A DNA stretch of 30,223 nucleotides from a virus. Where the stretch lies: IMG/VR virus record IMGVR_UViG_3300031949_000004, positions 1 through 30,223 of that record; one strand, 5' to 3'. How positions within the stretch are numbered: the first letter of the stretch is position 1; each line of letters starts with the position of its first letter. The translations under genes and the position numbers were made by a program. Of this stretch, positions 3,317-29,873 are shown in pieces. The notes under the pieces were generated by a model. That model ran no database searches. It was not told the DNA's origin and was given only the letters and a program-made list of their open reading frames with translations.

Positions 3317-3814
3317 ATGTGGAATGCCGCTGACGAGAAGGTTGCTCTGAAAGCGAACGCCAGGGCCGAGAAGATCGCGAGGCAGATCGTCCGGATGGCC
3401 GCCAAACAGGGCGCCAAGGATGTGTACCTGTCGGCCAGGGCACATGTGGGTTCGGGCTACTACAGCAAGCCCACCGGAGCGGTGGTCTTGACGTTCACGA
3501 CCATCGGGCGGCAGAGGACGGTGAACGATCTCAAGAAGCCGTTCGACCTGCCCGAGATCGTCCGGTTGCTGGTCGAGAAGCGCAAGCATGACGATGCTTG
3601 CGAGGCGGCTCGCGAGCGCAAGGAAAAGCTGTCCGAGGTCTTCGAGCGAGAAGTCTCGAAGTTGCGCAAGCGGTTTCCGAGGCTGCCGCTTGAGATCTGG
3701 GTGTCCTTTGATGCGGAGGGAATCATCTTGCACGTGTCGCGCTTGACGGCCCGGCAAGCTGGAGAGGTGCTCAAGGTGTTGGTAGATCGTTTCCCTGTTG
3801 AGGTCGAGAAATGA
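3317..3814 (+). CDS. Hypothetical protein
   Basis: 165-aa ORF with RBS aggggg. Its stop overlaps the next start (ATGA at 3811-3814). Confidence 0.45.
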   Translation: MWNAADEKVALKANARAEKIARQIVRMAAKQGAKDVYLSARAHVGSGYYSKPTGAVVLTFTTIGRQRTVNDLKKPFDLPEIVRLLVEKRKHDDACEAARERKEKLSEVFEREVSKLRKRFPRLPLEIWVSFDAEGIILHVSRLTARQAGEVLKVLVDRFPVEVEK

Positions 3815-4452
3815 CCACGGACGAGGCTTTGGCGATTTTCAAGCTCAAGGCGCCGACCACCTGGAACGTCGTCAAGACCAGGTATCGGCAGCTTGCAACG
3901 GTTGAGCATCCGGACCGGAGCAAGCACCCGGAGGCCGTGGCCCGTTTCAAACGGCTCGCGGAGGCCATGGAGCTGCTGCGGCGGGATCCAGCGGTCTTCG
4001 AGGACTATGGGGGTGTCGTCAAGACCGAGGATGGTGTTCTGCTGGCCGATCTCGGGAAGGGGCTTGGGCCGACCACGAACGGGGCTACCTGTGGTGAATG
4101 TTCTGGCAAGGGTTATCGTTCGGTTGAAGGTCGCGGGTTCGTGGATTGTTCGGATTGCCGGCGAGGTATCTTTGGTGTTGTTAAGGAGCTGAAGTGTTGG
4201 AAGTGTGATGGCACCGGGGTCTTCATGCGCGGGGGCAAGGTTGTGGGGAAGTGTTTTTCTTGTGACGGTTCGGGCTGGCGTGTGCCCAAGGACTATACAA
4301 CGTGGTGTCGGAAGTGTGGAACCAGGGGGCAGTTGCGGGTGCCCGCGAGGAAGATGTTCTTCACCTGTGAAAAGTGCAAGGGCACGGGCGAGCTGCCGAT
4401 GTGGAACCCGGTGCTCGCGAAGGGTCTTTTGTCCGGGTTGGGAGGTTTGTGA
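3811..4452 (+). CDS. J-domain protein with an extended CxxCxGxG zinc-finger region (DnaJ-like co-chaperone lacking the G/F and C-terminal domains)
   Basis: N-terminal J domain has the HPD tripeptide (ATVEHPDRSKHPEAVARFKRLAEAMELL). Six CxxC motifs follow: CGECSGKG, CSDCRRGIFG, CWKCDGTG, CFSCDGSG, CRKCGTRG, CEKCKGTG. Confidence 0.8.
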   Translation: MTTDEALAIFKLKAPTTWNVVKTRYRQLATVEHPDRSKHPEAVARFKRLAEAMELLRRDPAVFEDYGGVVKTEDGVLLADLGKGLGPTTNGATCGECSGKGYRSVEGRGFVDCSDCRRGIFGVVKELKCWKCDGTGVFMRGGKVVGKCFSCDGSGWRVPKDYTTWCRKCGTRGQLRVPARKMFFTCEKCKGTGELPMWNPVLAKGLLSGLGGL

Positions 4453-4481: not shown

Positions 4482-5375
4482 ATGGCACGCACGAAGAAGA
4501 CGAGCAAGAAGGGTCGCAAGACCGTGGTGCGAAGATCGCGGGTTGCCCGGAAGCCGAAAGTCCTGGAGCCCGTGGACTTCGAGGATGCGAAGGCCGTGCT
4601 CGCGGAGTTCTGCCGGGTCGAGAAGGAAGATCCAGAGGACTGGAAGATCGAGGAAGCCGAGGGGCTCGGCAGCTTCGGGGTTGCGACCGTGTACCGGGTC
4701 AAGTGCGGCCAGCGTGAGTACACGATCGTGGAGAGCGAGGATGTCCTGCGCGAGCTGGCGCTGGCCGTGGTCAAGCAGGACTTGGACCAGGAGCCGGAGA
4801 TCTTCAACCAGAGCTTCTTGGAGGGACACATCGACAAGGAGAAGCTGCGGAACGCTCTCCATGGCGATGTCTACGACATGGTCTATGACGATTTGAAGGA
4901 GGCGGCGGAGAAGGATCCCTTGGAGTTTTGGGATGTTCACGGAGGTGACGTGCCGGTGCCGGAGCGTGCGGTGGTTGAGAAGTACGTAGCCAGTACCTTC
5001 AATACCACCGAGGCCGAGGAAAGCACGCCCGAGGGGCAGGCGGAGCTGGCGGACGAGGTTGATCGAATCTGCGATCTTGATGTGTCAGATCAGTGGGCAG
5101 AGATCAGCGATGAGCCAGAGGTGCCATCGGGGATGATTGATACGGCTGCAGATCTGGAGACCAGTGAGCGTTTGAGCGATCCTGTGGAGTACATGAAGGG
5201 AATCTACGGGGACGCGGAAGGTATCAAGCAGGCGTTGAACGTCGCTGGTATCGACATCGACAAGGCTGCCGAGGAAGCCGTCGACACGGATGGTCCCGAG
5301 CACTTCATCTGTCGCTACGATGGGAATTCGCATACCACGTCGCCGTCGTCCTTTGCCTACTGGCGCGAGAACTGA
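4482..5375 (+). CDS. Hypothetical protein with a basic N-terminus and a highly acidic body
   Basis: 297 aa. RBS gaggtgg lies 6 nt upstream. Starts MARTKKTSKKGRKTVVRRSRVARKPK, then is Glu/Asp-rich. Confidence 0.5.
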   Translation: MARTKKTSKKGRKTVVRRSRVARKPKVLEPVDFEDAKAVLAEFCRVEKEDPEDWKIEEAEGLGSFGVATVYRVKCGQREYTIVESEDVLRELALAVVKQDLDQEPEIFNQSFLEGHIDKEKLRNALHGDVYDMVYDDLKEAAEKDPLEFWDVHGGDVPVPERAVVEKYVASTFNTTEAEESTPEGQAELADEVDRICDLDVSDQWAEISDEPEVPSGMIDTAADLETSERLSDPVEYMKGIYGDAEGIKQALNVAGIDIDKAAEEAVDTDGPEHFICRYDGNSHTTSPSSFAYWREN

Positions 5376-5379
5376 AAGG

Positions 5380-6288
5380 GTGGGCAACATTCCCAGGAAG
5401 AAGCTTTCGGTTGGGTTTGCTGACTTCTGGCAGGGGCACATTCCGGAGAAGAATTATTTCTACAGCCTGCTCCGGAATCACTTCGACCTGGAGATCTCAC
5501 CCAGGCCGGACTACTTGTTCTATTCGGTGTTCGGTCGCACACATCTGTCGAAGGCGTTTGACGGTTGTGTGAAGATCTTCTACACCGGAGAGAACTCGCG
5601 ACCCAACATGAGCGAGTGCGACTTTGCCCTGTCGTTCGATTACCTGGATCATCCTCGGCACTTGCGGTTCCCGCTTTATGCGTGTCATCTATGGAACAGA
5701 GATCTGACGAAGTCGTTGCCCTTGTTGCCCGAGCTGGCGAAGCGAAAGTTCTGCAACTTCATCTACAGCAATGGGACACCGCAGGAGCGCATAGCGTTCT
5801 TCAAGCTGCTATCGACATACAAGCGTGTTGATTCTGGTGGCAGCGTTATGAATAACATGGGTTGTTGTGTAGGTGACAAGCTTGCGTTCCTGAAGGACTA
5901 CAAATTCACGATCGCTTTCGAGAATTCGTCACATCCTGGTTACACGACTGAGAAGTTGGTGCAACCTATGATCTCCTGTAGTCTTCCGATCTACTGGGGT
6001 AACCCCCTGGTTGGGCGCGACTTCAATCGGCAGAGTTTCCTGGCTGTTGATTCAACTTCCGACTTTGATGATGTTCTCGTTGCGATCATGGCTTTGAATC
6101 GTGACGATTCCGCGTATCTGGAGATGCTTTCCAGGCCGTGGTTTGTAGGGGACGTGTGCAACGAATACTGCCGGCCTGATTACCTTGTGCCGTTCTTCGA
6201 GCGAGTCTTCGCGACCGCGCCGGGGAGCTTGAAACGCGAGCCGGGGATCTTGAAACGAGCGTCGAAGTCTTGGCAGGATTTTCGGTAG
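5380..6288 (+). CDS. Glycosyltransferase family 10-like (alpha-1,3-fucosyltransferase-like)
   Basis: FTIAFENSSHPGYTTEKLVQPMISCSLPIYWGNP matches the GT10 FucT hallmark FENS...Y.TEK plus IPIYWG. I place the start at GTG 5380 (RBS gaaaggg), just after the upstream stop. The frame is open from 5290, so the start is uncertain. Confidence 0.6.
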   Translation: MGNIPRKKLSVGFADFWQGHIPEKNYFYSLLRNHFDLEISPRPDYLFYSVFGRTHLSKAFDGCVKIFYTGENSRPNMSECDFALSFDYLDHPRHLRFPLYACHLWNRDLTKSLPLLPELAKRKFCNFIYSNGTPQERIAFFKLLSTYKRVDSGGSVMNNMGCCVGDKLAFLKDYKFTIAFENSSHPGYTTEKLVQPMISCSLPIYWGNPLVGRDFNRQSFLAVDSTSDFDDVLVAIMALNRDDSAYLEMLSRPWFVGDVCNEYCRPDYLVPFFERVFATAPGSLKREPGILKRASKSWQDFR

Positions 6289-9585: not shown

Positions 9586-10086
9586 ATGTATGGCAGAGAA
9601 TTGAGTGAACGTTATTTGGCCTTTCGTCGACGATCTTATGCCCAGGCCACCTACTACGAGGAATTGCAAGAAGCGGTGCAGCGGGAGCCCACACCTTGGA
9701 AGATTCCTCCACTGAAGGAGATGCAGATCATCGAACGTTATCGTGCGATGTTTCCTGACGCTTTCATGGATCGTCGCAAGGAGATGCCTCGGCCGGCCGG
9801 GGAATTCGGGATCGAGGTTTTCGCCGGTTGGCTTCCGATCGTGGAGGCGATGCTGGAAAAGCTGGCGGGCTTCGGGGACATCGTCATCGTGCAGATCAAG
9901 GAGAAGTTCGGAGCGTTGACCGTCTACGTGGGGGATCCGCAGAGCCGGGACGAGGTGCAAGCGATCCTTCGAGACGCGCGTCAGCTTTCGGTTGCCACTT
10001 GCGAGTTCTGTGGGCAACCAGGAAAAAATCAGCGCATGCGCGACGGCTGGTTCAAGACGATGTGCGACTCTTGCCGGGCGAAGTAG
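9586..10086 (+). CDS. Hypothetical protein with a C-terminal Zn ribbon (CEFCGQPG...CDSCRA)
   Basis: 166-aa ORF divergent from 9225-9533 across an AT-rich 52-bp spacer containing TATGCT. No SD, so it may be leaderless. Confidence 0.35.
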   Translation: MYGRELSERYLAFRRRSYAQATYYEELQEAVQREPTPWKIPPLKEMQIIERYRAMFPDAFMDRRKEMPRPAGEFGIEVFAGWLPIVEAMLEKLAGFGDIVIVQIKEKFGALTVYVGDPQSRDEVQAILRDARQLSVATCEFCGQPGKNQRMRDGWFKTMCDSCRAK

Positions 10087-11243
10087 GAACGAAGTCGACG
10101 GGTGAAATCTCGCGCAGTGGGGATACGGGCGAGGGTGAGGTGGTGCGAGCTTGTGGATCGAGGGGCACGATCTCGTCGGGTTCTGGATCGGGCAAGATGA
10201 ATTCCTGCACGGGAAGGTGGTGGTTCTCGTCCACGATTCCGTCGATGCGTTGGCGGCAGCCTTGGCAGAATTCGACGATGTCCATGGCCAGGCGCTTGGT
10301 CTTGGGTGGAAGGTTGCTGATCTTGATGGCCAGGATGAGCTTCTGGGTGCGTTCGAGTCCGGATACCGTCCAGAGCTTTTCGTTTTTCCGGTTGGGTGGT
10401 TTCTTGAGTCGCGCAAGCGCCTCGTCGGCCGTGATGCGGTGCTGGCCGAACCACAGGCGCAGGTTCTTGATGGCCTCGATGGGATTCATGGCCGAGAGCT
10501 TGACGAGGATTTCGAGCGGGATCTTGTCGCCGCGTTGCCAGGATTGCAGTACCTCGGGTGGGAGGCGGTCGATACAACCGAGCAGCTTTTCGATGTGCCC
10601 GAGGGAGTGTCCGGACTTGCGCGAGAACTCGTCGGGCTTGACGCCGAAGCGGTCGCGCATCATCCGGGCAGCGTGGGCCAGCTCGTAGGTCGAGAGTTTC
10701 TCGCGAGCCGTGTTCTCGATGATGTTGATCCAGTATTCCTGTGCCTCGGGGGTGTCGAGCGGCAGGACGATGGCGGGGATCGTTCTCCAGCCGAGATGTC
10801 GCACGGCCAGAGTGCGGCGGAAGCCGGCGCGGATGTGGAAATATTCGGGTTTGGGGGCGGTGACCACCACGATCGGTACCTTCAGTCCTTCGAGATTGAT
10901 GCTGTTCGTGAGTTCGGTGAGGCTCACGGGATCCATGGTGAGCCTGGAGTTCTTGAAGGTCGGATCGTCGAGGATCCGGTCGAGTTCGATGAGACGCGTC
11001 TCGGAGAAGTTGGCGGCGGTGCAGTTTTCGCCCTGGGGACCGGTGAGCGCGGTGAGGACATCGATGCGATGCTGGGCGGCGCGCTTGTCGAGCGCGGCCT
11101 GGGCACGGGCCGCCAAGGGGTTGTAGGGCCTGTCGTTGGAGGTCGCTTGGGTTTCGGTGTCGAGAGGCGGAGTATCGCCGGCAAGAATGGTTTTCAGCCG
11201 TTCGAGCAGGGCGGTGGGGTTGTCTGGGGTGATGTAAGGCAAG
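10052..11243 (-). CDS. ParB N-terminal (ParB/Srx) domain protein, putative DNA-binding protein or nuclease
   Basis: KVPIVVVTAPKPEYFHIRAGFRRTLAVRHLGWRTIPAIVLP is a ParB-N signature. The ORF is open to 11359, but that would overlap the SNF2 gene by 88 nt. TTG at 11243 with GGAGG upstream is the more plausible start. Confidence 0.65.
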
Positions 11244-11270
11244 GGGTGTTGCCTCCGGGCTGGTGGATCT

Positions 11271-12974
11271 TCACACGGCCAGCTTGAGCTGTCGAGGCGG
11301 TTGGGATTTGGGTTTGAGATCTTGTTCCGGGTGTCGGTTGAGCGCCTTGTCCAAGACATCTTGCTTGGCGATGATTCGTTTGGACATGTTCACGTCGATG
11401 GTTCCGTCAAGGACGAGGTGGATGATGTGGACCATCTTCTTCTGTCCGATCCTTGCCAGGCGATCTTCCGCCTGGCTGACGATGGAGGGGTTCCAGTCGA
11501 CTTCGACCAGGATAGCGGTCGAAGCGGCGAACAGGTTGAAGCCCACGGCCGTTTTGAGCCCGCCGATGAAGATCCGTGCGTCGCCTTCCTGGAACCGCTT
11601 GACGGCCAGCTCGCGGTCGGGCTTCTTGGTTTCGCCGTGTAGGCAAACCGCCTGGTTACCGTAGTGCTGGGCGAGCTGAGCGAGCACGTCCTGGTGGTGG
11701 GCGAAGATCACCAACTTGTCGATGCCGGAGGCCAGCACATCATCTATATAGGCGATGCATGCGGGTAGCTTGGCCAGGGCGGTCTTGTGCCGGAACTCGC
11801 TCATCTCGGTGAAGGCGACGCCGATGAAGTCGTCGAGGGCCTGGATGGCTGCCTTGTATTCCTCGTTGGTCTTGGCGGCTTCCAGGGCGCCCAGGCGGGC
11901 CTCGTAGTCGGCATCGTAGAGCTGCTTCCATCGCTGGAAGTCGGGATCTTGTGACCAGTCGATCTCGGAGTCACCGAGTACGACGAGCTGGCGGCGTTTG
12001 GGCGGTAGCTCGGTGAGTACGTCGGCACGGCGTCTGCGGATCATGAAGCTCGCGCGCAGGCGTTGTTGCAATTCGCCGAGGTGCGTCCCCCCCGTGTCGA
12101 TGGTTCGACCGCCCTGGCGATGTAGGCCGCAGTAGCGGTGTGCGAATTCGATCCAGTTGCCGAATTTGGCCGGGCAGATGGCGGCGGCGATGGTCCAGAT
12201 CTCCTTGGGGTAGTTCTCGATGGGTGTGCCGGACAAAAACAGGCATCGATGCGACCTTTGCATGAGGCCGTTCTCGCCGAGCACGGCCTGGGTGCGCTGG
12301 GCATTCGGGGTCTTGAGCGCGTGTGCCTCGTCGCAGATGAGGACGTCCCAGATGCGTGCCAGTGACTGTGTGAGGGGCGAATTCCTGATGAGCTTTTCGT
12401 AGTTCACGATGACGAGCAGGTTGTCGCGATTGGGGACGACTGACTGCCCAGATTTTGGGATCACAATTTCACGAGGGTTCACCAACCATTTCGTTGCTTC
12501 GTTTCGCCAGTTGAATGCCAGTGTGTCAGGTGCTACAACGAGAACGTTACCAGGTTTGAGATAGTTGATGAATCCTAATGCCTGTATCGTTTTACCGACA
12601 CCCATCTCGTCACCAAGAAGTGTGTCTTTGTGATCTCGTATGTATGCAACCCCGGCTTTTTGAAACGGCAGGTAGCTCAAATCTTCAGGACAAGGGATCA
12701 CGATGTTGGCATCTACGGCTCGCGATCGAGCAAGCTTGTCGAGGTGAACCTTCATGACCTTGAGCGCCTCGGCGTTGCAGTAGGATCTAAGACGTGTGGC
12801 CGACTCGACCTTGTTCGACCAGAACCGGTTCCCTATGTTCGCTCGACAGGCTTTGCATTTGCCGTCGCGCTTGCATAACGTTGGTTCGTGTAGCTCGAAG
12901 CCGGCTTTGCGGAGGGCGCCTCGCTCGTCGGGCTTGTCTACAACGAATACACCTTTCCAGTAGGCGATGATCAT
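11271..12974 (-). CDS. SNF2-family ATPase/helicase (second copy) with an N-terminal Cys-containing domain
   Basis: 567 aa. LLGDEMGVGKTIQALGF (motif I), VLICDEAHALKT (DEAH), and the helicase-C region HGETKKPDRELAVKRFQEGDARIFIGGLKTAVGFNLFAASTAILVEVDWNPSIVSQAEDRLARIGQ. N-terminus contains CKRDGKCKAC. Confidence 0.85.
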   Translation of the reverse strand: MIIAYWKGVFVVDKPDERGALRKAGFELHEPTLCKRDGKCKACRANIGNRFWSNKVESATRLRSYCNAEALKVMKVHLDKLARSRAVDANIVIPCPEDLSYLPFQKAGVAYIRDHKDTLLGDEMGVGKTIQALGFINYLKPGNVLVVAPDTLAFNWRNEATKWLVNPREIVIPKSGQSVVPNRDNLLVIVNYEKLIRNSPLTQSLARIWDVLICDEAHALKTPNAQRTQAVLGENGLMQRSHRCLFLSGTPIENYPKEIWTIAAAICPAKFGNWIEFAHRYCGLHRQGGRTIDTGGTHLGELQQRLRASFMIRRRRADVLTELPPKRRQLVVLGDSEIDWSQDPDFQRWKQLYDADYEARLGALEAAKTNEEYKAAIQALDDFIGVAFTEMSEFRHKTALAKLPACIAYIDDVLASGIDKLVIFAHHQDVLAQLAQHYGNQAVCLHGETKKPDRELAVKRFQEGDARIFIGGLKTAVGFNLFAASTAILVEVDWNPSIVSQAEDRLARIGQKKMVHIIHLVLDGTIDVNMSKRIIAKQDVLDKALNRHPEQDLKPKSQPPRQLKLAV

Positions 12975-12986
12975 GTGGGGGAGGTC

Positions 12987-13484
12987 TCAGGAAGACGGTT
13001 GGGGTTGGCCAATGCGGTCGCTTACCCAGTCGTTTACTACAAGATCATCAACCATACAGTTCGAGCACACGGATTGGTTGAAGGGGTACAAGAATCGGAA
13101 TCCCTCTGCCCGTGTATGATGACACACGATGCAGGTTTCTTCGGGTAACCCCTTGGTACGAGATGCCTTAGCGGTGTGGACGATGTGGTCATTTACCACA
13201 AGATTGTCAGCCATACAATTTGAGCATACGGATTGGTTGAATGGGTACAAGAACCGGAAGCCTTCCGCGCGCGTATGATGACAGACGATGCAGGTTTCTC
13301 CAGGTTGTCCCTTGGCACGAGAATCGATTCTTTGGATTAGTGCGCGGGTCGCCCTGGCAGCACCATGTACTTTGAGTGTATACATGAACACAACCGCGAC
13401 GACAAAGCCATAGGCAAACCCAACCCACCAGTTGGGGCAAAGGTCACTGAGATGTTTCCAGGTGTCGTGTTGCCAGTCATTCAT
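12987..13484 (-). CDS. Membrane-anchored protein with two tandem CxxCHH...CxxC zinc-ribbon modules
   Basis: N-terminal hydrophobic helix WWVGFAYGFVVAVVFMYTL. The roughly 51-aa module ETCIVCHHTRAEGFRFLYPFNQSVCSNCM occurs twice. At the DNA level the repeat period is about 153 bp. Confidence 0.5.
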   Translation of the reverse strand: MNDWQHDTWKHLSDLCPNWWVGFAYGFVVAVVFMYTLKVHGAARATRALIQRIDSRAKGQPGETCIVCHHTRAEGFRFLYPFNQSVCSNCMADNLVVNDHIVHTAKASRTKGLPEETCIVCHHTRAEGFRFLYPFNQSVCSNCMVDDLVVNDWVSDRIGQPQPSS

Positions 13485-13502
13485 TTGAGCACAATTGTCG
13501 TT

Positions 13503-13724
13503 TTAGGTTTTCAGTCCCACCAGCTTTGCAATCGATTCCAGGGTGTGATGTTCATTTAGACATTCTGGGGATTCATGGATGATGTGCTGAATGGTTGTGA
13601 TGTTTGGGCGCCCTAGATCGCTATACCTGCCGTTGTAGATGTCTTGTTGCATGAGAGGTAGGAGGGCATCGATGGCCGCGAGCCGGTCCTCGGGTGTCCA
13701 CCGACGGGAAATCGTGGTTTTCAT
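13503..13724 (-). CDS. Hypothetical small protein
   Basis: Internal ATG (MKTTISRR) with aggaa upstream. A longer Arg-rich extension to 13787 is possible. Confidence 0.35.
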   Translation of the reverse strand: MKTTISRRWTPEDRLAAIDALLPLMQQDIYNGRYSDLGRPNITTIQHIIHESPECLNEHHTLESIAKLVGLKT

Positions 13725-18474: not shown

Positions 18475-19113
18475 ATGACCATCAAGGAATTCATGCAGAA
18501 GGTGCATGCGACGGCCGTGGCCAAGGGTTGGTGGGAGAAAGATCAGGAGACCGGTCGGCTTAAGGCCCGGAACACCGCCGAGATGCTCGCGCTCATGCAT
18601 AGCGAGGTCGCGGAGGCTCTGGAGATCTATCGGATCCCGAACAAGAAGCTGTCGGATCTGTGGACTTCCAATGGTGGTGTAGCCACGTCGAATCCGCTGA
18701 CACAGGTCGAAGTGGAAGCGCATTGCCAGGTGATGGATCCTGATTTTGCGGGCAAGCCCGAGGGTTTCATGGTCGAGATCGGAGACCTGATGATCCGGAT
18801 TGCCGATACCTGTGAGGCCATGTCGATTCCCCTTGACGTGGTCCTATGCAACACGGACATCTCGCGGCTTAGTTGGGGTCGGAACGTGCTCGATGTTGTT
18901 GTGTCAGAATTGCTTCAGCACATGAATGTGTGCCTGGTGTATGCGTTCAACGCCATCCGGAACGGGCGTGCGGCGGCCGAGTCGTTCGCGGAGATCTTTC
19001 ACACCTGTGCGCACATCGCCACGCTGGCAGGGGTGTCCTTGGAGTACGTGCTGGTCTGGAAGATGAGGTACAACGAGACCCGGTCCTACCGGCACGGCAA
19101 CAAGAAGTGCTAG
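18475..19113 (+). CDS. MazG-like nucleoside triphosphate pyrophosphohydrolase
   Basis: 212 aa. RBS aggagg. Contains LALMHSEVAEALEIYR (EExxE metal-binding motif) and later acidic helices. Confidence 0.65.
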   Translation: MTIKEFMQKVHATAVAKGWWEKDQETGRLKARNTAEMLALMHSEVAEALEIYRIPNKKLSDLWTSNGGVATSNPLTQVEVEAHCQVMDPDFAGKPEGFMVEIGDLMIRIADTCEAMSIPLDVVLCNTDISRLSWGRNVLDVVVSELLQHMNVCLVYAFNAIRNGRAAAESFAEIFHTCAHIATLAGVSLEYVLVWKMRYNETRSYRHGNKKC

Positions 19114-19705: not shown

Positions 19706-21817
19706 ATGGCTGAATTTGGTCCTATCACTACCGAACGCCAGTTGAGGAACATCGGTGTGCTCGACCTGGAATGGGTGCCCGGTGAGGTGTTACCCATGCC
19801 CGAGAGCACTATGCTCGAAATTGACGGGATCCGGGCACCGCTCGTCATTAACCTGCCGCCCGTTAAGACGCGAACGGCTCCTTTGCAGCTTCGTTTGGCT
19901 GGTTACTATGATCAGCAGCCGGAGTGCGAGGACGAGGAAGAGCCGGTGATGGTGGAGCGGTATGAGGTCTTCAAGAGTATTGCGGAGCTGGTCGAGTTCA
20001 TGTTCGTGCGCGAGCACCGGGGCATGTGGTTCTTTGCTCATGCGGGCGGGCTCTTCGACATGGAGTTCGTGCTCGACGAGCTACTTAACCAGATCAAGGA
20101 GTCCTTGGCGGCCAAGCGTCAGCGTTCACGGACCGTTTATGGTCCTGATGGGCAAAAGCAGGAGGAGACGATCACGGCTACGGGATCGGAGTCCGATGCC
20201 CCCATGTGGACGATCAAGGCGGCGTTCTCGGGGTCATCGGCGATCATCATCCATGTCAGCAAAGGCAAGAACACCTGGCATTGTGTCGATTCGTATTGGT
20301 TGTTTCGGGACAAGCTCTCGAAGATCGGTGAAAGCATAGGTATCAAGAAGCTCGACGAGGAGAAACGTCGCACGCCCGAGGAGACTCGGAAATACTACGC
20401 CGAGACTCCGCTTTCCACGTTAATTCCTTACAACAAGGTGGATTGCGAGATTTTGTGGAAGGCCATCGCAGCCTTCGAGAAGGAGGTGTTGGGTTTAGGC
20501 GGCCAGCTCCAGCAGACCATCGCCTCGACGGCCATGAACTTGTTCCGGCGTGCCTATCTCAAGCGGACGATCCACACCTCGGAGATCTTGAATCAGATCG
20601 CCGTGAAGAGTTATTTCGCCTCGCGGGTCGAGGTCTTTCAGCGCCATGCCGAGGACTTCTTCATCTACGACATCAACTCGTCGTTTCCGTATTCGATGAC
20701 TTTCCCGTTGCCCGCTGATCTGATCGAGATGGGTACGACCATCCCCGAGGATGATGACGATTCGTGCATCTACTTGGCGGACGCCACGGTCGAGGTGCCC
20801 GAGATGGCGATTCCGCCTTTGCCGTTCCGGACCCAGGAGGATAGTCGCGTGTTCTTCCCGACCGGGCGGTGGCGGTCGTGGTTCACGTCGACCGATTTGC
20901 GGTTGGCGTTCCGTGAGGGTTGCACGATCCATAAGATCCACGAGTGCTACCGGTTCGAGCCGTTCGAGGATTTCGGCAACTATGCTCGCGAGATCTACGC
21001 CATGCGGGTGGCGGCAGACAACCCTTTTCGCAAGCTGCTTTTGAAGTACCTTCTCAATTCCTTGTATGGTAAGGCTGCGGAGTCACTGATGAAGCAGGAG
21101 ATGCTCATCAATCCTGCCGAAGAAGATCTTGACAGAACCCAGCTCCAGATGCTTCAGCCGGGGATCTGGCTGCGCGAGAAGGAAGTTGCAATTGCACACC
21201 GACACGTTGTCGTTTCGTCTGTTATCACAGCATTGTCTCGTCGACATTTGTATGACCATGCTAAAGCTTGCGAAGAACAGAAGAAACCAATATTGTATTG
21301 TGACACGGATAGTGTAGCAACAAAGGCTACGTTGTCGTGTTCAAAGGAGCTTGGCGCCCTGAAGCGTGAGAAGGAAATGGATTGGGCCGAGTTTGTTGCT
21401 CCAAAGATTTATCGTGGTGAGGGTGTCGAGCTAAAGGATGATGGTGGTCGTAAGGCTGTGAAGCTGGCTAAGGCTAAGGGGTTCTCGCTCGGCAAGTTTG
21501 ATAGTCCCATTGACGCCCTGGGTCGTATCATCGATGGGGAGCAGGTGGGCGTCCAGTCCATGGTGCGCATGCGTGAGCTTTATCGGTCGACCACGGAAGA
21601 GCACGCGGAGAGTGCTCCCTATGAGAAGCTCGTGATCAAGGCGCTCACGCAGCGGATGCTCTCGAAGCGATTTTTCTATCCTGATGGTCATACGCGGGCC
21701 TGGACGACCGAGGAGATCTTGTCAGGTGATTTCCAAAGTCAAGGATTCGATTTCGGCGACGACTTCATGAAACAGCTTGACACTACAACGCGAGCCATGC
21801 TGGAGGCGGCGGTATGA
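19706..21817 (+). CDS. Family B DNA polymerase with an N-terminal 3'-5' proofreading exonuclease (compact, probably protein-primed type)
   Basis: Exo I: VLDLEW (about nt 19761). Exo II: FAHAGGLFDMEF. Exo III: YNKVDCEIL. Motif A: DINSSFPYSM (about nt 20669). Motif B: KYLLNSLYGK (about nt 21046). Motif C: YCDTDSV (about nt 21295). KxY: PKIYRG. At 703 aa it is too short for typical RNA-primed PolBs. Confidence 0.85.
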   Translation: MAEFGPITTERQLRNIGVLDLEWVPGEVLPMPESTMLEIDGIRAPLVINLPPVKTRTAPLQLRLAGYYDQQPECEDEEEPVMVERYEVFKSIAELVEFMFVREHRGMWFFAHAGGLFDMEFVLDELLNQIKESLAAKRQRSRTVYGPDGQKQEETITATGSESDAPMWTIKAAFSGSSAIIIHVSKGKNTWHCVDSYWLFRDKLSKIGESIGIKKLDEEKRRTPEETRKYYAETPLSTLIPYNKVDCEILWKAIAAFEKEVLGLGGQLQQTIASTAMNLFRRAYLKRTIHTSEILNQIAVKSYFASRVEVFQRHAEDFFIYDINSSFPYSMTFPLPADLIEMGTTIPEDDDDSCIYLADATVEVPEMAIPPLPFRTQEDSRVFFPTGRWRSWFTSTDLRLAFREGCTIHKIHECYRFEPFEDFGNYAREIYAMRVAADNPFRKLLLKYLLNSLYGKAAESLMKQEMLINPAEEDLDRTQLQMLQPGIWLREKEVAIAHRHVVVSSVITALSRRHLYDHAKACEEQKKPILYCDTDSVATKATLSCSKELGALKREKEMDWAEFVAPKIYRGEGVELKDDGGRKAVKLAKAKGFSLGKFDSPIDALGRIIDGEQVGVQSMVRMRELYRSTTEEHAESAPYEKLVIKALTQRMLSKRFFYPDGHTRAWTTEEILSGDFQSQGFDFGDDFMKQLDTTTRAMLEAAV

Positions 21818-24742: not shown

Positions 24743-25161
24743 TCGGGATCTTCTGCTACACGATCCCGTATCCTCGCTACTTGGACAAGGTCACCCGGCG
24801 TGCGGTCGAGGTCGAGAAGTCTTCCGAGGAGCCAGGCAACATCTTGCCTGCCGAGGAGCCGGGGATTTGGTCCGAGGTTATCATGCCCAGGGGCAGCAAG
24901 CTCTTGCGCGTGGATACCGGCCACACCAAGCTAGCGTTCTGGGCGGCGGTTCCGATCGGTGAGACTAGGCTTTGCACGCGCAAATTTCTGCTCTTGATGG
25001 GCGGGGAAGCCATCGACGACGAGAAGTTTCCGACGTTGCTTTATCGGGGGACTGTGCAGATCTACCACGGGGGATTTCTGTGGCATGTCTTCGAGCCCAT
25101 TGATCAGGTGTTGGCCGAGGACAACGCGATTGCCATGATTCGCGTGGAGAAGACGACATGA
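24739..25161 (+). CDS. Hypothetical protein
   Basis: 140 aa. ATGA overlap with both the upstream and downstream genes. Confidence 0.45.
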   Translation: MIGIFCYTIPYPRYLDKVTRRAVEVEKSSEEPGNILPAEEPGIWSEVIMPRGSKLLRVDTGHTKLAFWAAVPIGETRLCTRKFLLLMGGEAIDDEKFPTLLYRGTVQIYHGGFLWHVFEPIDQVLAEDNAIAMIRVEKTT

Positions 25162-25877
25162 TGGACGAGCTTCATATTCGACAGCGTGTTGACAACGGCC
25201 GAGAAACCTGGGACACGCCGACCATGCGGTGGATGCAGACCTACACGGGCAAGGTCATCGATATCGCGAACCCGAAGCCGGAAGACATCGATATCGTGGA
25301 CATCGCGCACGCGCTCGTGCGGTTGTGCCGCTACGGTGGGCATGTGGAGACCTGGTATTCGGTCGCCGGACATTCGTTGGCCATGGCCAAGTTCGCCGAG
25401 ACGCTTTCCGACCAGACCATGTTGGAGTGTCTTTTTCATGATGCCACCGAGGCGTATTTGGGCGACACGATTTCCCCCGTGCGCAAGCTACTTACCGACT
25501 GGACCAGGCGAGTGGTTTCAGAGACAGGGGATCCTGCTGGCAATGGTGTCCTGAGCATGCTGGAGCTTTTGCACGAGCGGTGGCAGAGCGCGATCTGGCA
25601 AAGGTTCGGGTTGTGCGTGATCGGGTCGACGGTGCGCACGCTCGACAAGCTGGCGCTCTTGGCCGAAGTGTCGCTGGTATTCAGGACCGTGTCGCCAGCT
25701 TTCGAGCGCAACGGTTACACGTGCGATCCGAACGAGCCGGCGCTGCACAAGATGCAGGATTTCGTTCGCCCCTATGTGCAGGAGTGCGAACCAGGTGGTT
25801 TTGGGCACAACGAGCTTGAGCTGGAGTTCGTGAATGCCTTCACTCGCTGGGAAGCCTTGCGGAGAAAGGGGCGTTGA
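25158..25877 (+). CDS. HD-domain phosphohydrolase, YfbR-like 5'-deoxynucleotidase
   Basis: SVAGHSLAMAKFAE...CLFHDATEAYLGDTISPVRK matches the H...HD...D pattern of YfbR-type HD hydrolases. Confidence 0.65.
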   Translation: MMDELHIRQRVDNGRETWDTPTMRWMQTYTGKVIDIANPKPEDIDIVDIAHALVRLCRYGGHVETWYSVAGHSLAMAKFAETLSDQTMLECLFHDATEAYLGDTISPVRKLLTDWTRRVVSETGDPAGNGVLSMLELLHERWQSAIWQRFGLCVIGSTVRTLDKLALLAEVSLVFRTVSPAFERNGYTCDPNEPALHKMQDFVRPYVQECEPGGFGHNELELEFVNAFTRWEALRRKGR

Positions 25878-26740: not shown

Positions 26741-27226
26741 ATGGGTGCCATCGTTCAATTACCGTTTCGGTATCTCGAAATTGCTACGGCTGAAATAGGT
26801 CAAACCGAGATTGAAGGCAACGTTGACAATCCTCGTATTCTCGAATACTTCAAGACAACGTCGTACCAGGCAGCACACGATGAGGTGTCGTGGTGTGCGG
26901 CTTTCGTGAACTGGTGCTTGGTTCAAGCGGGCATCAAAGGAACCAATAGTGCCAGTGCGCTTTCTTTCGCTAACTGGGGTGTTGAGGTTAGGCCGTGTCT
27001 TGGTAGCGTTGCTGTCATAGATTACGGCAACGGTAAGGGGCATGTGGGTTTTCTTGTTGGGTGGCAGGGGCCGAGCTTTGTGTTGTTGGGTGGGAATCAG
27101 GGCAATTCAGTTCGCTACAAGTTGGTTTATCCCCAAAGCATTACGCACTGTCGCATGCCGGTGGAGATCTTACCGGAGCTTGCTGCTATCACAGCCACGT
27201 CTCTGGACTATGCATCATCCAGGTGA
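26741..27226 (+). CDS. CHAP / NlpC-P60-like peptidoglycan hydrolase (phage lysin-like, TIGR02594-like)
   Basis: NPRILEYFKTT...SWCAAFVNWCL (catalytic Cys context) and a downstream GKGHVGFLVGW (His). RBS gaggt. Confidence 0.6.
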   Translation: MGAIVQLPFRYLEIATAEIGQTEIEGNVDNPRILEYFKTTSYQAAHDEVSWCAAFVNWCLVQAGIKGTNSASALSFANWGVEVRPCLGSVAVIDYGNGKGHVGFLVGWQGPSFVLLGGNQGNSVRYKLVYPQSITHCRMPVEILPELAAITATSLDYASSR

Positions 27227-27334: not shown

Positions 27335-27853
27335 ATGGCAAAGAAGGGCAAGAAGGGCAACAAGAAGGTAGGGGGCGCAACCAAGGACGAGTCGACGGTT
27401 GCAGATCAGTCGGGCGCGAAGGTCAACCTGCGCACGGCGGCTCCAGCCGTTCGGATCCGTGGCCAGGTTGCGAATTCCACCGGGAAGCTCGAACAGGTTC
27501 TCGGCAAGATGAATGGCTGGGCGCAGAACAGTTCCAGCGACGAGCTGACTCGGGGGATCGCCCAGCTTGACACCATCATGGGCGATCTGGGGGCTCTCGA
27601 CAGGATGTTGGGGGCGCTCGTGTCTTCGGGCTGGATGCCGCCGCGCAAGTCCTACACGGCTTCGACCAAGGAGGGCGACACCGTGTCCGTGCTGGAAGAG
27701 CATCGGAGTCGCTACAGCGACATCCTGGAGCCCGGAAAGCAGGTCGAGCTGACGGTCGTCAAGAAGTACCCCGGTCGCGGCGGTGGGCTCGTTGCCGAAT
27801 CCAAGGACGGCACCCGGCTCATGGTGTCCACGAGTCACGTCGTTCGCTTGTAG
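27335..27853 (+). CDS. Hypothetical protein with a basic N-terminus
   Basis: 172 aa. Strong RBS. Starts MAKKGKKGNKK. Confidence 0.5.
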   Translation: MAKKGKKGNKKVGGATKDESTVADQSGAKVNLRTAAPAVRIRGQVANSTGKLEQVLGKMNGWAQNSSSDELTRGIAQLDTIMGDLGALDRMLGALVSSGWMPPRKSYTASTKEGDTVSVLEEHRSRYSDILEPGKQVELTVVKKYPGRGGGLVAESKDGTRLMVSTSHVVRL

Positions 27854-27885
27854 GACATCGACGGCGGCGCCATACTTGTTGGGCC

Positions 27886-28134
27886 ATGTCGAAACGTCGT
27901 TCAAGAGTACGTGATGCGAGAACCGTCGAGGAGCATCGGGCTGCGGTAGTCGATCGCTGGCATGAGATCTTCAGGCCGGTGCAATCTTCCGTTGTCGACA
28001 ATCCCGATCAGCCCCGTGCTCCTCGGCCACCTCGCCGTCGCTCCGGCGGTGGGGGGCACGGAGGCGGATTTTCGCGTATTGGGACAGGGTCGGGACTTGG
28101 AGGGTTCGACGATGATGATGATGACATCGAATGA
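27886..28134 (+). CDS. Possible small Gly/Arg-rich protein with a poly-Asp C-terminal tail
   Basis: 82-aa ORF with no clear RBS. Ends RRRSGGGGHGGGFSRIGTGSGLGGFDDDDDDIE. Confidence 0.3.
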   Translation: MSKRRSRVRDARTVEEHRAAVVDRWHEIFRPVQSSVVDNPDQPRAPRPPRRRSGGGGHGGGFSRIGTGSGLGGFDDDDDDIE

Positions 28135-28221
28135 ACCGGTGATGTGAGAACCGAAAGGGAGTCGGGGCGTGTGTGAACCGTGGGGGCAGCGATCTGACAT
28201 AGGGGATTTGGAGAAACACAC

Positions 28222-28629
28222 ATGAACCGAAAACTGTACGTGAACAACATTCCGTGGAGTGTGACCAACAACGATTTGAAGACCTGGGTTCAGGGTCTAG
28301 GTTTCGTTGTCGACGAGGTTAAGATCATCATGAGCGCCGAGGACGGAAGGTCGCGTGGTTTCGGTTTCATTACCTTTCGGACGGAGGAGGAGGCAAGTCG
28401 CGCACTGTGGAAGCTTGACGGTGCGAGCTACCTGGGTCGGGTGTTGCACGCGGCCGTTGCGGTTCCAAAGAAACCGGGCGACAGGGCTCCAGAGTCGAGG
28501 CAACCCGAACCCGGAGAACCTGAGGTTCGTGGCGACCGTTCAGACTATGCCGGGGCCTGGTCTCCCGAGGAAGCAAAGGCTGCGAAGGGGCGACGGCATC
28601 AACGAGACGAACACGATATGGATGATTGA
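28222..28629 (+). CDS. RRM (RNA recognition motif) RNA-binding protein with a charged C-terminal tail
   Basis: RNP-2 KLYVNNIPW. RNP-1 RGFGFITF. RBS ggagaaacacac. The C-terminal 50 aa are R/E/D-rich. Confidence 0.8.
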   Translation: MNRKLYVNNIPWSVTNNDLKTWVQGLGFVVDEVKIIMSAEDGRSRGFGFITFRTEEEASRALWKLDGASYLGRVLHAAVAVPKKPGDRAPESRQPEPGEPEVRGDRSDYAGAWSPEEAKAAKGRRHQRDEHDMDD

Positions 28630-28665
28630 TTCATGCTTGTTTTGGTGGTGGACAATGATCGTTCC

Positions 28666-28691
28666 GATACATCATTTGTCTCTGATGTATG
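28666..28691 (+). promoter_or_regulatory. Imperfect 9-bp-stem hairpin or palindrome in a low-GC spacer between the RRM gene and the next gene
   Basis: gatacatca-tttgtctc-tgatgtatg, followed by gtgtgttgg. Possible terminator or operator. Confidence 0.3.
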
Positions 28692-28838
28692 TGTGTTGGA
28701 TCATGTGCAGTTGCCCGGTGCGCTTTCCGGCAACCCAAAATTTTTGTCGTGGATAGACCGCGCTTCAGTGGGGGATGTTTATCAAATTGGCAATACCTAT
28801 CACATCATTAAGTTGGGTGTGTTAACCGGATAACAAAC

Positions 28839-29873
28839 ATGTTTCCATCGATTCACAAGGGGATCTGTCTTTTCTGTGGCAAGCCGGACAAGGTGATCCG
28901 TTTGGCTAACACGTCGGGACTTGCCGCCGCTCTATCGACGGCAATTGCGTCCAAGCTCGCGCCGGCCGATGGGATCTGCAATGAGTGTTCGTACTCGCTG
29001 CGCAACATCTGGATGGGCGAGCGGAACGAGTTGATCAGGGCCTCCTCGCCGCGCATCGAGCTGACCTACACGCTGATCCCCACGCTGTTGGCCGAGCACA
29101 GCGACATCGATATCACGTCCTACGAGTTTTCCGTCGACAGTACCGGCAATGTTCCCAGCACCGACTTCTGGGATGATGTTCGTCGGGATACGAAGATCTT
29201 GGAGTGGCTGGACAAGACCTATGGCATCGTGACCTGGAAGCCGATGTTCAGGCGGTGCTACCTCGGCTTCAATCCGTCGGGTCTCTTTTCCGAGGTGTTG
29301 TTGGTTCGCGCCTGGGGACGCTCTTTCAAACACCCTGTGGAAGTTTCCCAGGTTCCCTTCATGCGACTGCTCAATCAAGTGGCGCCAGAAGCCGGGTTCT
29401 ATCTCGGTGTCAAGAGCGCCTTCGAGTCGCTCTTGTGGCGGCGGGAGACCGTGCCAGCGGGCAACGAGCTTTGCGTGGTCATGCGCGAGGCGGCCATGCG
29501 GTACATCGCTTACAGGAGTGGGCAGGAGAAGGCTCCCGACAGCACATCCGTCGATTTTTGCTACGGTATGATGTCGCCGCTCGAAAAAGAGATGGCTCGT
29601 GATGTGCTAGTAGACATGGCCAAGGCGGCGACAGCCGCGCAGCCCAAGCCGGAGTTGGTCGTCAGACCGGAGGCCGTGCGCGAGGAAGCGGCCAGGGTGG
29701 CGGCGGCGGCGCGCAACATCGACTTCGGCGAGGGTGCCGATGAAGATGGTGCCGAAGTGCCCGATGATGAAGACGAGAATGTGATTGGTGGTGGTGGTGG
29801 TGGCAACATTGTCGATGCTCGTAGCGTGGCGCCGGGGTTTGCTCGCAAGCCACGTTCTCCACTCATTCGTTAG
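28839..29873 (+). CDS. Hypothetical protein with an N-terminal Cys pair motif and an acidic, Gly-rich C-terminus
   Basis: 344-aa ORF. Contains CLFCGKPDKV...CNECSY. C-terminus reads DEDGAEVPDDEDENVIGGGGGGN. Confidence 0.5.
   Translation: MFPSIHKGICLFCGKPDKVIRLANTSGLAAALSTAIASKLAPADGICNECSYSLRNIWMGERNELIRASSPRIELTYTLIPTLLAEHSDIDITSYEFSVDSTGNVPSTDFWDDVRRDTKILEWLDKTYGIVTWKPMFRRCYLGFNPSGLFSEVLLVRAWGRSFKHPVEVSQVPFMRLLNQVAPEAGFYLGVKSAFESLLWRRETVPAGNELCVVMREAAMRYIAYRSGQEKAPDSTSVDFCYGMMSPLEKEMARDVLVDMAKAATAAQPKPELVVRPEAVREEAARVAAAARNIDFGEGADEDGAEVPDDEDENVIGGGGGGNIVDARSVAPGFARKPRSPLIR

Follow-up and report, generated by a model that had tools for sequence, protein, structure and literature searches.

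A conserved single-domain RRM protein in a syntenic gene block of very large, probably phage-like elements

The gene at 28222..28629 of the IMG/VR virus record IMGVR_UViG_3300031949_000004 encodes a protein that is a canonical RRM_1 (RNA recognition motif, RRM) protein by sequence, signature motifs and predicted fold. The whole stretch of DNA that was analysed, positions 1 to 30,223 of this record, is called the window below. We read the protein, with a probability of roughly 55%, as a functional single-domain RRM protein of a very large phage-like element, most probably bacterial, where it would act as a factor binding single-stranded RNA. The RRM gene is no stray passenger: it is conserved, under selection and part of a gene block.

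A canonical RRM domain followed by a disordered charged tail

28222..28629, + strand: RRM protein gene, ATG start, 135 aa plus stop
28222-28461, + strand: RRM domain, residues 1-80, as placed by Pfam, motifs and predicted fold
28462-28626, + strand: disordered Arg/Asp/Glu-rich tail, residues 81-135, with the acidic tip RDEHDMDD
28210-28213, + strand: GGAG Shine-Dalgarno (SD) motif, 8 nt before the RRM ATG, kept in the relatives L007 and L005

A sequence-only reading of this gene had proposed a canonical RRM from the motifs LYVNNIPW and RGFGFITF, to be checked by a Pfam RRM_1 search. Indeed, RRM_1 (PF00076) matches the 135-aa protein with E=1.1e-15 and 57.7 bits (cut-off 20.7), and the match spans residues 5-76 and the full profile, positions 1-70 of 70. 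Both signature motifs are intact, RNP-2 being L5-Y-V-N-N-I10 (pattern tested on β1, [ILV]-[FY]-[ILV]-x-N-[LI]) and RNP-1 being R45-G-F-G-F-I-T-F52 (pattern tested on β3, [RK]-G-[FY]-[GA]-[FY]-[ILV]-x-[FY]). Residues Y6, G46, F47, G48 and F49 are invariant across the family alignment. The intact RNP aromatics argue for binding of a single-stranded nucleic acid on the β-sheet. RRM_1 is the sole domain found in the protein, and the scan showed no oligonucleotide/oligosaccharide-binding (OB) fold of the single-stranded DNA-binding protein (SSB) type.

An AlphaFold2 (AF2) model built from the family alignment has the β1-α1-β2-β3-α2-β4 topology over residues 4-79, with a predicted local distance difference test (pLDDT) score above 90; the strands comprise residues 4-8, 30-37, 44-52 and 76-79 and the helices residues 16-25 and 55-65. 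The tail from residue 85 has a pLDDT of about 50. When this model was compared with known structures by Foldseek, 781 PDB chains matched at E<=1e-3, RRM1 of HuR with a template modelling (TM) score of 0.86-0.91 and a root-mean-square deviation of 1.4-1.6 Å. A phmmer search of PDB sequences likewise returned RRM proteins only, namely PABP, nucleolin, chloroplast cS22, HuR, hnRNP A1 and others. The bacterial single-RRM protein of entry 2ki2, named 'Ss-DNA binding protein 12RNP2', matches with E=2.6e-10. The proposal of a canonical RRM is thus borne out by sequence, Pfam, AF2 and Foldseek.

The Arg/Glu/Asp-rich nature of the tail, also proposed earlier, is confirmed by 7 R and 14 D+E among its 55 residues, which further include 4 K and 5 Gly. 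All tails of the family (10/10) are charged, disordered and closed by an acidic tip, in which an aromatic residue is usually present: DEWGWES, DEYEWNK, DNYDRD, GDYDRD, GEYDRDE and HWDDERGRGD in relatives, DEHDMDD in this protein. The same criterion for a tip holds for just two homologues outside the family, among those with tails of at least 25 residues. The tails of relatives are Arg/Gly/Ser-rich, with (RAGGS)n in L169 and GGKRGGRRGR in L007.

The RRM gene is a fixed member of a conserved block

26741..27226, + strand: CHAP-domain peptidoglycan hydrolase-like gene, upstream edge of the block
27335..27853, + strand: conserved 172-aa gene with a Lys-rich N-terminus, first after CHAP
27886..28134, + strand: conserved small 82-aa gene, always directly upstream of the RRM gene
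28839..29873, + strand: 344-aa partner gene, conserved next to the RRM gene

Seven close homologues of the RRM protein share 62-74% identity with it over 65-88% of the query, and gene order is identical in every one whose context could be read. Further orthologues in the same gene order are 66% (L171), 48% (L169) and 43% (L170) identical. The block consists of CHAP, a protein of about 170 aa, a small acidic-tail protein, the RRM protein, a zinc-ribbon protein of about 345 aa and a TPR protein of about 420 aa. It is located between the replication module, which includes a family-B DNA polymerase (PolB) and a PolB-exonuclease-like gene, and the nucleotide-metabolism and glycosyltransferase genes, among them ThyX.

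The association with the zinc-ribbon partner is particularly stable. A search with the partner reached distant elements in which it is only 33-37% identical, on contigs of 112 kb (L169) and 38 kb (L170), and when both were opened an RRM_1 gene was found directly upstream of it. The RRM gene precedes the partner gene in every locus examined, and no partner gene was found beside the 160 other RRM loci fetched. Over the RRM domain, the ratio of nonsynonymous to synonymous substitution rates (dN/dS, Nei-Gojobori) is 0.13-0.21 against four orthologues, at dS>1 and thus with saturated synonymous sites. The RRM open reading frame (ORF) is far beyond chance and under purifying selection. In the wider PolB lineage, three members (L173-L175) show no RRM within the stretch available, and the RRM block seems specific to one sub-lineage.

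Among the neighbours, the CHAP gene is matched by Pfam CHAP (3.7e-7), phrog_1259 (5.6e-28) and TIGR02594 (1.5e-30); the 172-aa protein has no match in Pfam, PHROG, PDB or NCBIfam. The 82-aa protein is composed of a basic N-terminal segment (MSKRRSRVRDARTVEEHRAAVVDRWHEIF), a Gly-rich linker and the C-terminal tip GGFDDDDDDIE, and has no match in PDB. Its orthologues of 75-81 aa lie at 9507-9743 in L002, 2660-2887 in L005 and 9664-9909 in L007; this family of 75-82 aa is partly missed by gene callers, small ORFs being present at the same position in relatives. By analogy, the tip could mimic the bacterial SSB tip and bind SSB-interacting proteins. The partner carries an N-terminal CxxC...CxxC zinc ribbon, a conserved core, an acidic linker and a C-terminal PGFARxPR motif, and it has no Pfam, PHROG, PADLOC, NCBIfam or PDB match.

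Phylogenetic position and distribution

The exhaustive search of representative sequences was swamped by multi-RRM proteins, which filled the top 150 through summed domain scores, and scores were therefore recomputed per domain. Two 50%-identity clusters, P0003 and P0007, alone belong to the family in this search. The domains of L169 and L170 come directly below the core family with 71 and 68 bits, and other bacterial or eukaryote-type domains score at most 65; the best bacterial domain reaches 64.9 bits and the best eukaryote-type domain, from a fern two-RRM protein, 64.6 bits. By these sequence scores, the RRM shows no greater similarity to RRMs of eukaryotes than to those of bacteria. Neighbour joining of 202 RRM domains recovered the core family as a clade in 187/200 bootstraps, and the core together with L169 and L170 in 131/200; no sister group of the element RRMs emerged from this tree. 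Whether the protein groups with cyanobacterial Rbp-type or with eukaryotic RRMs had been raised as a question, and neither grouping was found. The family forms its own clade, and there is no cyanobacterium among the best 80 of at least 581 genome matches, although for the cyanobacterial Rbp grouping the tree is a weak test, as it lacks cyanobacterial reference sequences.

The sequence-only reading also held that RRM proteins are uncommon in bacteria and rarer still in phages or plasmids, which proved right for isolated phages but not for plasmids and species genomes. By tblastn, an RRM relative is present in 1 of 50,697 isolated-phage records at E<=1e-3 and in 3 at E<=1, and no PHROG family matches the protein at E<=1e-3. 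On the other hand, single-RRM relatives occur in 204 of 72,556 plasmid records, 157 of them from Piscirickettsia, and are encoded in the genomes of at least 581 species of bacteria or archaea. Among the matches listed, bacterial relatives of 35-48% identity include members of Bdellovibrionota, Verrucomicrobiota, Planctomycetota and Myxococcota. IMG/VR holds 113 contigs with single-RRM relatives, counted irrespective of a check of their viral nature. As far as these sequence searches tell, it is among isolated phages that RRM proteins of this kind are scarce, whereas in bacteria and plasmids they are not.

The clear isolated-phage match is the Microcystis jumbo phage MaAM05, to which two jumbo Acinetobacter phage records are added at E<=1. 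All these matches lie in jumbo genomes of 220-274 kb; that of Acinetobacter phage MD-2021a is very weak (E=0.7) and annotated as PABP-family. A literature search on phage RRM_1 proteins and on jumbo phages with protein-primed polymerases yielded nothing directly relevant.

Flanking sequences and regulation

28630-28838, + strand: low-GC insert of 209 nt, GC 42-49%, holding a 66-aa ORF and an 8-bp palindrome
28633-28833, + strand: 66-aa ORF in the insert, GC at third codon positions (GC3) 0.48
28137..28154, + strand: conserved block of 18 nt, CGGTGATGTGAGAACCGA, upstream of the RRM gene

The gene had been described as lying between two low-GC spacers with palindromes and, hence, as a likely independently regulated unit. 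Neither statement holds. The 368 nt upstream (27854-28221) have a GC content of 53-69%, compared with a window mean of about 58%, and consist mostly of the 82-aa gene, leaving a real intergenic gap of 87 nt; the downstream side alone is low in GC. The 66-aa ORF there has a GC3 of 0.48, against 0.51-0.82 in the seven neighbouring genes scored. The downstream insert contains a perfect inverted repeat of 8 bp (28667-28674/28683-28690), and the flanking inverted repeats are all short. Since the scan found no promoter-like site around the RRM gene and no terminator-like site flanking it (one match falls inside the ORF, within chance expectation), and since RNA folding of either flank was no better than that of shuffles (z=-1.2 and -1.0), the palindromes were not treated as regulatory signals.

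When compared by BLAST with the window and all loci, the 209-nt insert proved unique, being absent from L002, L005, L007 and L171; it is therefore no repeat or miniature inverted-repeat transposable element. In L002, L005, L007 and L169, the next gene begins directly at the RRM stop or overlaps it, and in L171 a gap of 21 nt separates the two. Because of this packing in relatives and the lack of flanking promoter- or terminator-like sites, the RRM gene looks like part of an operon-like, tightly packed co-directional array and not like an independent unit. The junction between the RRM and zinc-ribbon genes takes unrelated small insertions, namely the 66-aa ORF of the window and, in L170 (9777-10004), a 75-aa ORF.

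The 18-nt block at 28137..28154, also written CGGUGAUGUGAGAACCGA, is present in a single copy in the window. It matches at 17/18, 15/18 and 12/18 positions in three relatives, despite the saturation of synonymous sites, and in L002 it stays beside the RRM gene across an insertion of about 170 nt. Its RNA fold is not significant. This block could be a promoter, an operator or an element of the 5' untranslated region.

The carrier element

162-2780, + strand: SNF2 helicase with an N-terminal zinc-finger-like DUF6011, best match phrog_62
3811-4452, + strand: DnaJ-like gene (J domain and CXXCXGXG zinc domain)
5290-6288, + strand: GT10 alpha-1,3-fucosyltransferase gene
10052-11359, - strand: ParB-like gene, adjoining the second SNF2 gene
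11271-12974, - strand: second SNF2 helicase, best match phrog_62
18475-19113, + strand: MazG-like pyrophosphatase gene
19706-21817, + strand: PolB gene, 703 aa, PF03175 type, protein-primed type
25158-25877, + strand: HD dNMP phosphatase gene (phrog_318, 2.5e-39)
L170 3151-4416, L169 12340-13098 and L002 14019-14975: nucleotide-pool genes in relatives

Pfam and PHROG scans of about 31 ORFs show that the window covers the part of a large element devoted to replication and nucleotide metabolism; a distance of 1.5 kb separates the RRM gene from the PolB-exonuclease-like gene upstream. For the RRM, partner and PolB proteins alike, the longest contig on record with the identical protein measures 194,181 bp. 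The window also encodes a HerA/FtsK-type ATPase with a weak TerL PHROG match (2.3e-13).

Genes are dense, co-directional, overlapping and intron-free, and SD motifs precede 15/31 starts, against a background of 18%. The content of the window and its relatives is phage-like, with dNMP phosphatase, pyrophosphatase, ThyX, methylases and a sigma factor. SD motifs, the CHAP, HTH_8 and ThyX genes of the window or its relatives and the sigma-70 factor of a relative indicate a bacterial host. The prokaryotic mobile element assumed in the sequence-only reading is supported by the phage-type DNA-metabolism genes, the SD motifs, the sigma-70-bearing relative and the absence of the family from species-representative genomes, where two family-derived peptide patterns found no member in 185,579. 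One PolB relative, L173 (ENA ERZ27256510 k141_2341605), comes from a metagenome-assembled genome labelled 'Conexivisphaerales archaeon'; this label was not trusted as a host and is probably wrong, since L173 encodes a sigma-70 factor (Sigma70_r2/r4; 12885-13529) and HTH_8.

No virion gene (capsid, portal, terminase or tail) was found in the 30-kb window or the fetched flanks, and a metagenome scan with the SNF2 gene reached none. The HerA/FtsK-type ATPase, with its weak TerL match, and the CHAP hydrolase are the sole hints in that direction. From its gene content, the element would most likely be a jumbo phage, with a giant plasmid as the alternative. Rfam and tRNA scans of the window gave nothing.

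The nearest relatives of the PolB among isolated viruses are protein-primed enzymes, from Methanosarcina spherical virus and the tectiviruses Bam35, GIL16 and AP50. More than 1,100 PolB relatives were found at E<1e-10, on contigs of up to 282 kb; identity among the 120 listed is in the range of 58-93%, and inteins (PF14890) occur in some. Scans of IMG/VR with the PolB and with the partner alignment gave no match, so that this lineage is not in IMG/VR by these queries, and megablast of 25 kb against isolated phages was likewise negative. This lineage appears to be a widespread and so far undescribed group of giant elements, whose polymerase type is known elsewhere from small viruses.

Several further features of the element were observed. 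The DnaJ-like protein and the GT10 fucosyltransferase are unusual cargo in a phage-like element, and more glycosyltransferases lie downstream in the relatives L002, L169 and L170. The nucleotide-pool toolkit of the lineage includes MazG-like, HD, ThyX and thymidylate kinase genes, and an adenylosuccinate-synthetase-family gene in L170; the set of PurA-like, MazG-like and HD proteins may be compared with PurZ/MazZ/DatZ of 2-aminoadenine phages. The contig L182 (Ga0208980_10000021, 67.5 kb) starts 1.27 kb upstream of the SNF2 gene found at window position 162. It shares sequence with the window from window position 135 on, including the promoter-like TTGTAGACTG before that gene, and its leading 1.27 kb (1-1274) looks G-rich. 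The starts of the window and of L182 may mark a genome terminus or a terminal-repeat assembly break.

Comparison with known RRM proteins and SSBs

MW495066.1 176687-177340 (L172 3001-3654): tandem-RRM hypothetical protein WMU93361.1 of phage MaAM05

The protein shares with the bacterial Rbp proteins, such as Synechocystis Rbp3 and Bacteroides RRM-1, a single N-terminal RRM_1 of about 80 aa with canonical RNP-2 and RNP-1, a short length of about 100-140 aa and the frequent low-complexity C-terminal tail. The best NCBIfam match is in fact Rbp_regulator (NF058537; 1.4e-16, 60.5 bits), under its cut-off of 100. Unlike those proteins, it has a phage-like carrier, belongs to a separate clade and is always paired with the zinc-ribbon protein, and its tail is rich in Arg/Asp/Glu/Pro instead of Gly and ends in an acidic tip. 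The arrangement of one RRM followed by a disordered Arg/Gly-rich tail also resembles eukaryotic CIRBP/hnRNP A18 and plant GRP7-type proteins, most clearly in L169 and in L007 (GRRGR), and the hnRNP A18 RRM (5tbx) is among the top structural matches of the model. However, prokaryotic context, the acidic tip and a tail weakly rich in Gly (5/55) set it apart, and no specific phylogenetic affinity to these eukaryotic Gly/Arg-rich proteins was found.

Among phage proteins, T4 RegA has an RRM-like fold, is a proposed post-transcriptional regulator and is reported from some jumbo phages (PMC7824862); this fold of RegA is the sole such mention in that jumbo-phage comparative review. Like the present protein, RegA is small and phage-encoded, and no RegA PHROG matched at E<=1e-3. 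RegA is not known to belong to Pfam RRM_1 or to carry RNP-1 and RNP-2 motifs. The MaAM05 protein is likewise an RRM_1 protein of a jumbo genome (274 kb), but it has two RRMs in 217 aa, 39% identity and unrelated neighbours (zur, mggB). Finally, the disordered linker leading to an acidic, often aromatic tip recalls E. coli SSB and T7 gp2.5; the nucleic-acid-binding domain is an RRM here and an OB fold in SSBs. The family tips, and that of the upstream small protein, bear a putative resemblance to acidic SSB tips.

Probable function and alternative explanations

Characterised bacterial RRM proteins act on RNA: Synechocystis Rbp3 is described as interacting with ribosomes and mRNA 3' ends in a post-transcriptional role (PMC12232666), and the single-RRM Bacteroides RRM-1 proteins are described as acting post-transcriptionally (PMC13370968). 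By analogy with them, the protein would most likely bind RNA and act in post-transcriptional control, a reading that we hold to be somewhat better than an even bet. The four-stranded β-sheet would bind single-stranded RNA via the RNP-2/RNP-1 aromatics Y6, F47 and F49, and the disordered basic tail, Arg/Gly-rich in relatives, would contribute non-specific affinity. The conserved acidic and usually aromatic tip could either fold back and damp binding or recruit a partner. During infection, the protein might thus serve, with its block neighbours, as an RNA chaperone or as a regulator of the stability or translation of viral or host transcripts. Of the roles named in the sequence-only reading, RNA chaperoning and regulation are thus plausible, and the sole hint of cold adaptation is the automatic JGI name of one orthologue.

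Several observations weigh against this picture. The RRM gene adjoins DNA-replication genes, not RNA-metabolism genes, and RRM domains can bind single-stranded DNA (ssDNA) too, as the match to 2ki2 recalls. The tail of the 28222-28629 protein is the least Arg/Gly-rich in the family, with a net charge of -3. No function could be recognised among the neighbours by Pfam, PHROG, PADLOC, PDB and NCBIfam, and the AF2 model of the partner is too poor for use (mean pLDDT 56). Furthermore, because no virion gene was seen, 'phage' over 'plasmid' is not proven and is what we infer.

The replication context gives some weight to an unlikely yet serious alternative, in which the RRM protein is an ssDNA-binding accessory of protein-primed replication, analogous to phage SSBs; its sheet would hold the displaced ssDNA and its acidic tip would contact the replisome, as in E. 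coli SSB or T7 gp2.5. The gene lies among PolB, exonuclease, HD dNMP phosphatase, pyrophosphatase, SNF2, ParB and HerA genes, and the PolB belongs to the protein-primed enzymes, which replicate by strand displacement and so require an SSB, as in phi29. None of the 31 window proteins scanned matches an SSB or OB fold (0/31), acidic and mostly aromatic tips close all family tails, the protein encoded upstream ends in GGFDDDDDDIE, and PDB names a bacterial single-RRM protein ssDNA-binding (2ki2). However, canonical RRM_1 proteins are overwhelmingly RNA binders, and an SSB may sit elsewhere, since the inspection covered 30 kb, and in these the larger ORFs, of an element of at least 194 kb. Acidic tips occur in RNA-binding proteins too, and their likeness to SSB tips is a putative one. 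A bolder proposal, which we regard as rather doubtful, joins the RRM protein, the upstream acidic-tail protein and the zinc-ribbon partner in one nucleic-acid-handling module of an undescribed 194-282 kb PolB element lineage. Such a module might take either of two forms: the RRM protein could replace the OB-fold SSB in strand-displacement replication, or the RRM with its Arg/Gly tail could nucleate RNA-protein assemblies that organise viral expression, like eukaryotic RRM-RGG proteins.

It is also rather improbable that the gene is a host-derived passenger ('moron') supplementing host Rbp-type stress or cold proteins, with no role specific to element RNA. Such an origin would fit the wide occurrence in bacteria of single-RRM proteins of similar length (35-48% identity), the automatic JGI name 'cold-inducible RNA-binding protein' of one orthologue and the bacterial Rbp_regulator as best NCBIfam match, whose score of 60.5 is, however, under the cut-off of 100. 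The top bacterial identity among the matches listed is 48%, the tail tip and the zinc-ribbon partner are lineage-specific, and the partner is found at 0/160 other RRM loci. The RRM also forms its own clade and kept its position while the partner diverged to 33-37% identity, and therefore a long vertical descent within the element is indicated, not a recent capture. Still less probable is a counter-defence or takeover factor that sequesters host RNAs or host RNA-binding partners and not viral RNA. The gene stands among small lineage-specific genes, as in early takeover regions, and its junction with the partner accepts unrelated insertions (66-aa ORF here, 75-aa in L170), but no PADLOC model matches, and a core function accounts better than an arms race for the deep conservation and the fixed synteny. 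We consider very remote the idea that the contig derives from a eukaryotic virus or a eukaryotic contaminant and that the RRM is an ordinary eukaryote-type gene. The fern domain scores level with the best bacterial one (64.6 and 64.9 bits), and GT10 fucosyltransferase and DnaJ-like genes are present; against this stand the SD motifs at 15/31 starts (18% background), the dense, co-directional, overlapping and intron-free genes, and the CHAP, ParB, HTH_8, ThyX and sigma-70 genes of the window or its close relatives.

Significance

RRM_1 domains are the main RNA binders of eukaryotes, are poorly understood in bacteria and are almost unknown in phages. The kind of protein is itself already known, and the unusual part is its conserved viral-type context. 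As the RRM is fixed, selected and surrounded by constant neighbours across the lineage, it offers a defined system for the role of an RRM in a prokaryotic virus, and the question that this system poses is that of RNA control in infection versus ssDNA handling in protein-primed replication. The carrier lineage, with more than 1,100 PolB relatives and apparently undescribed, may merit equal attention to the gene.

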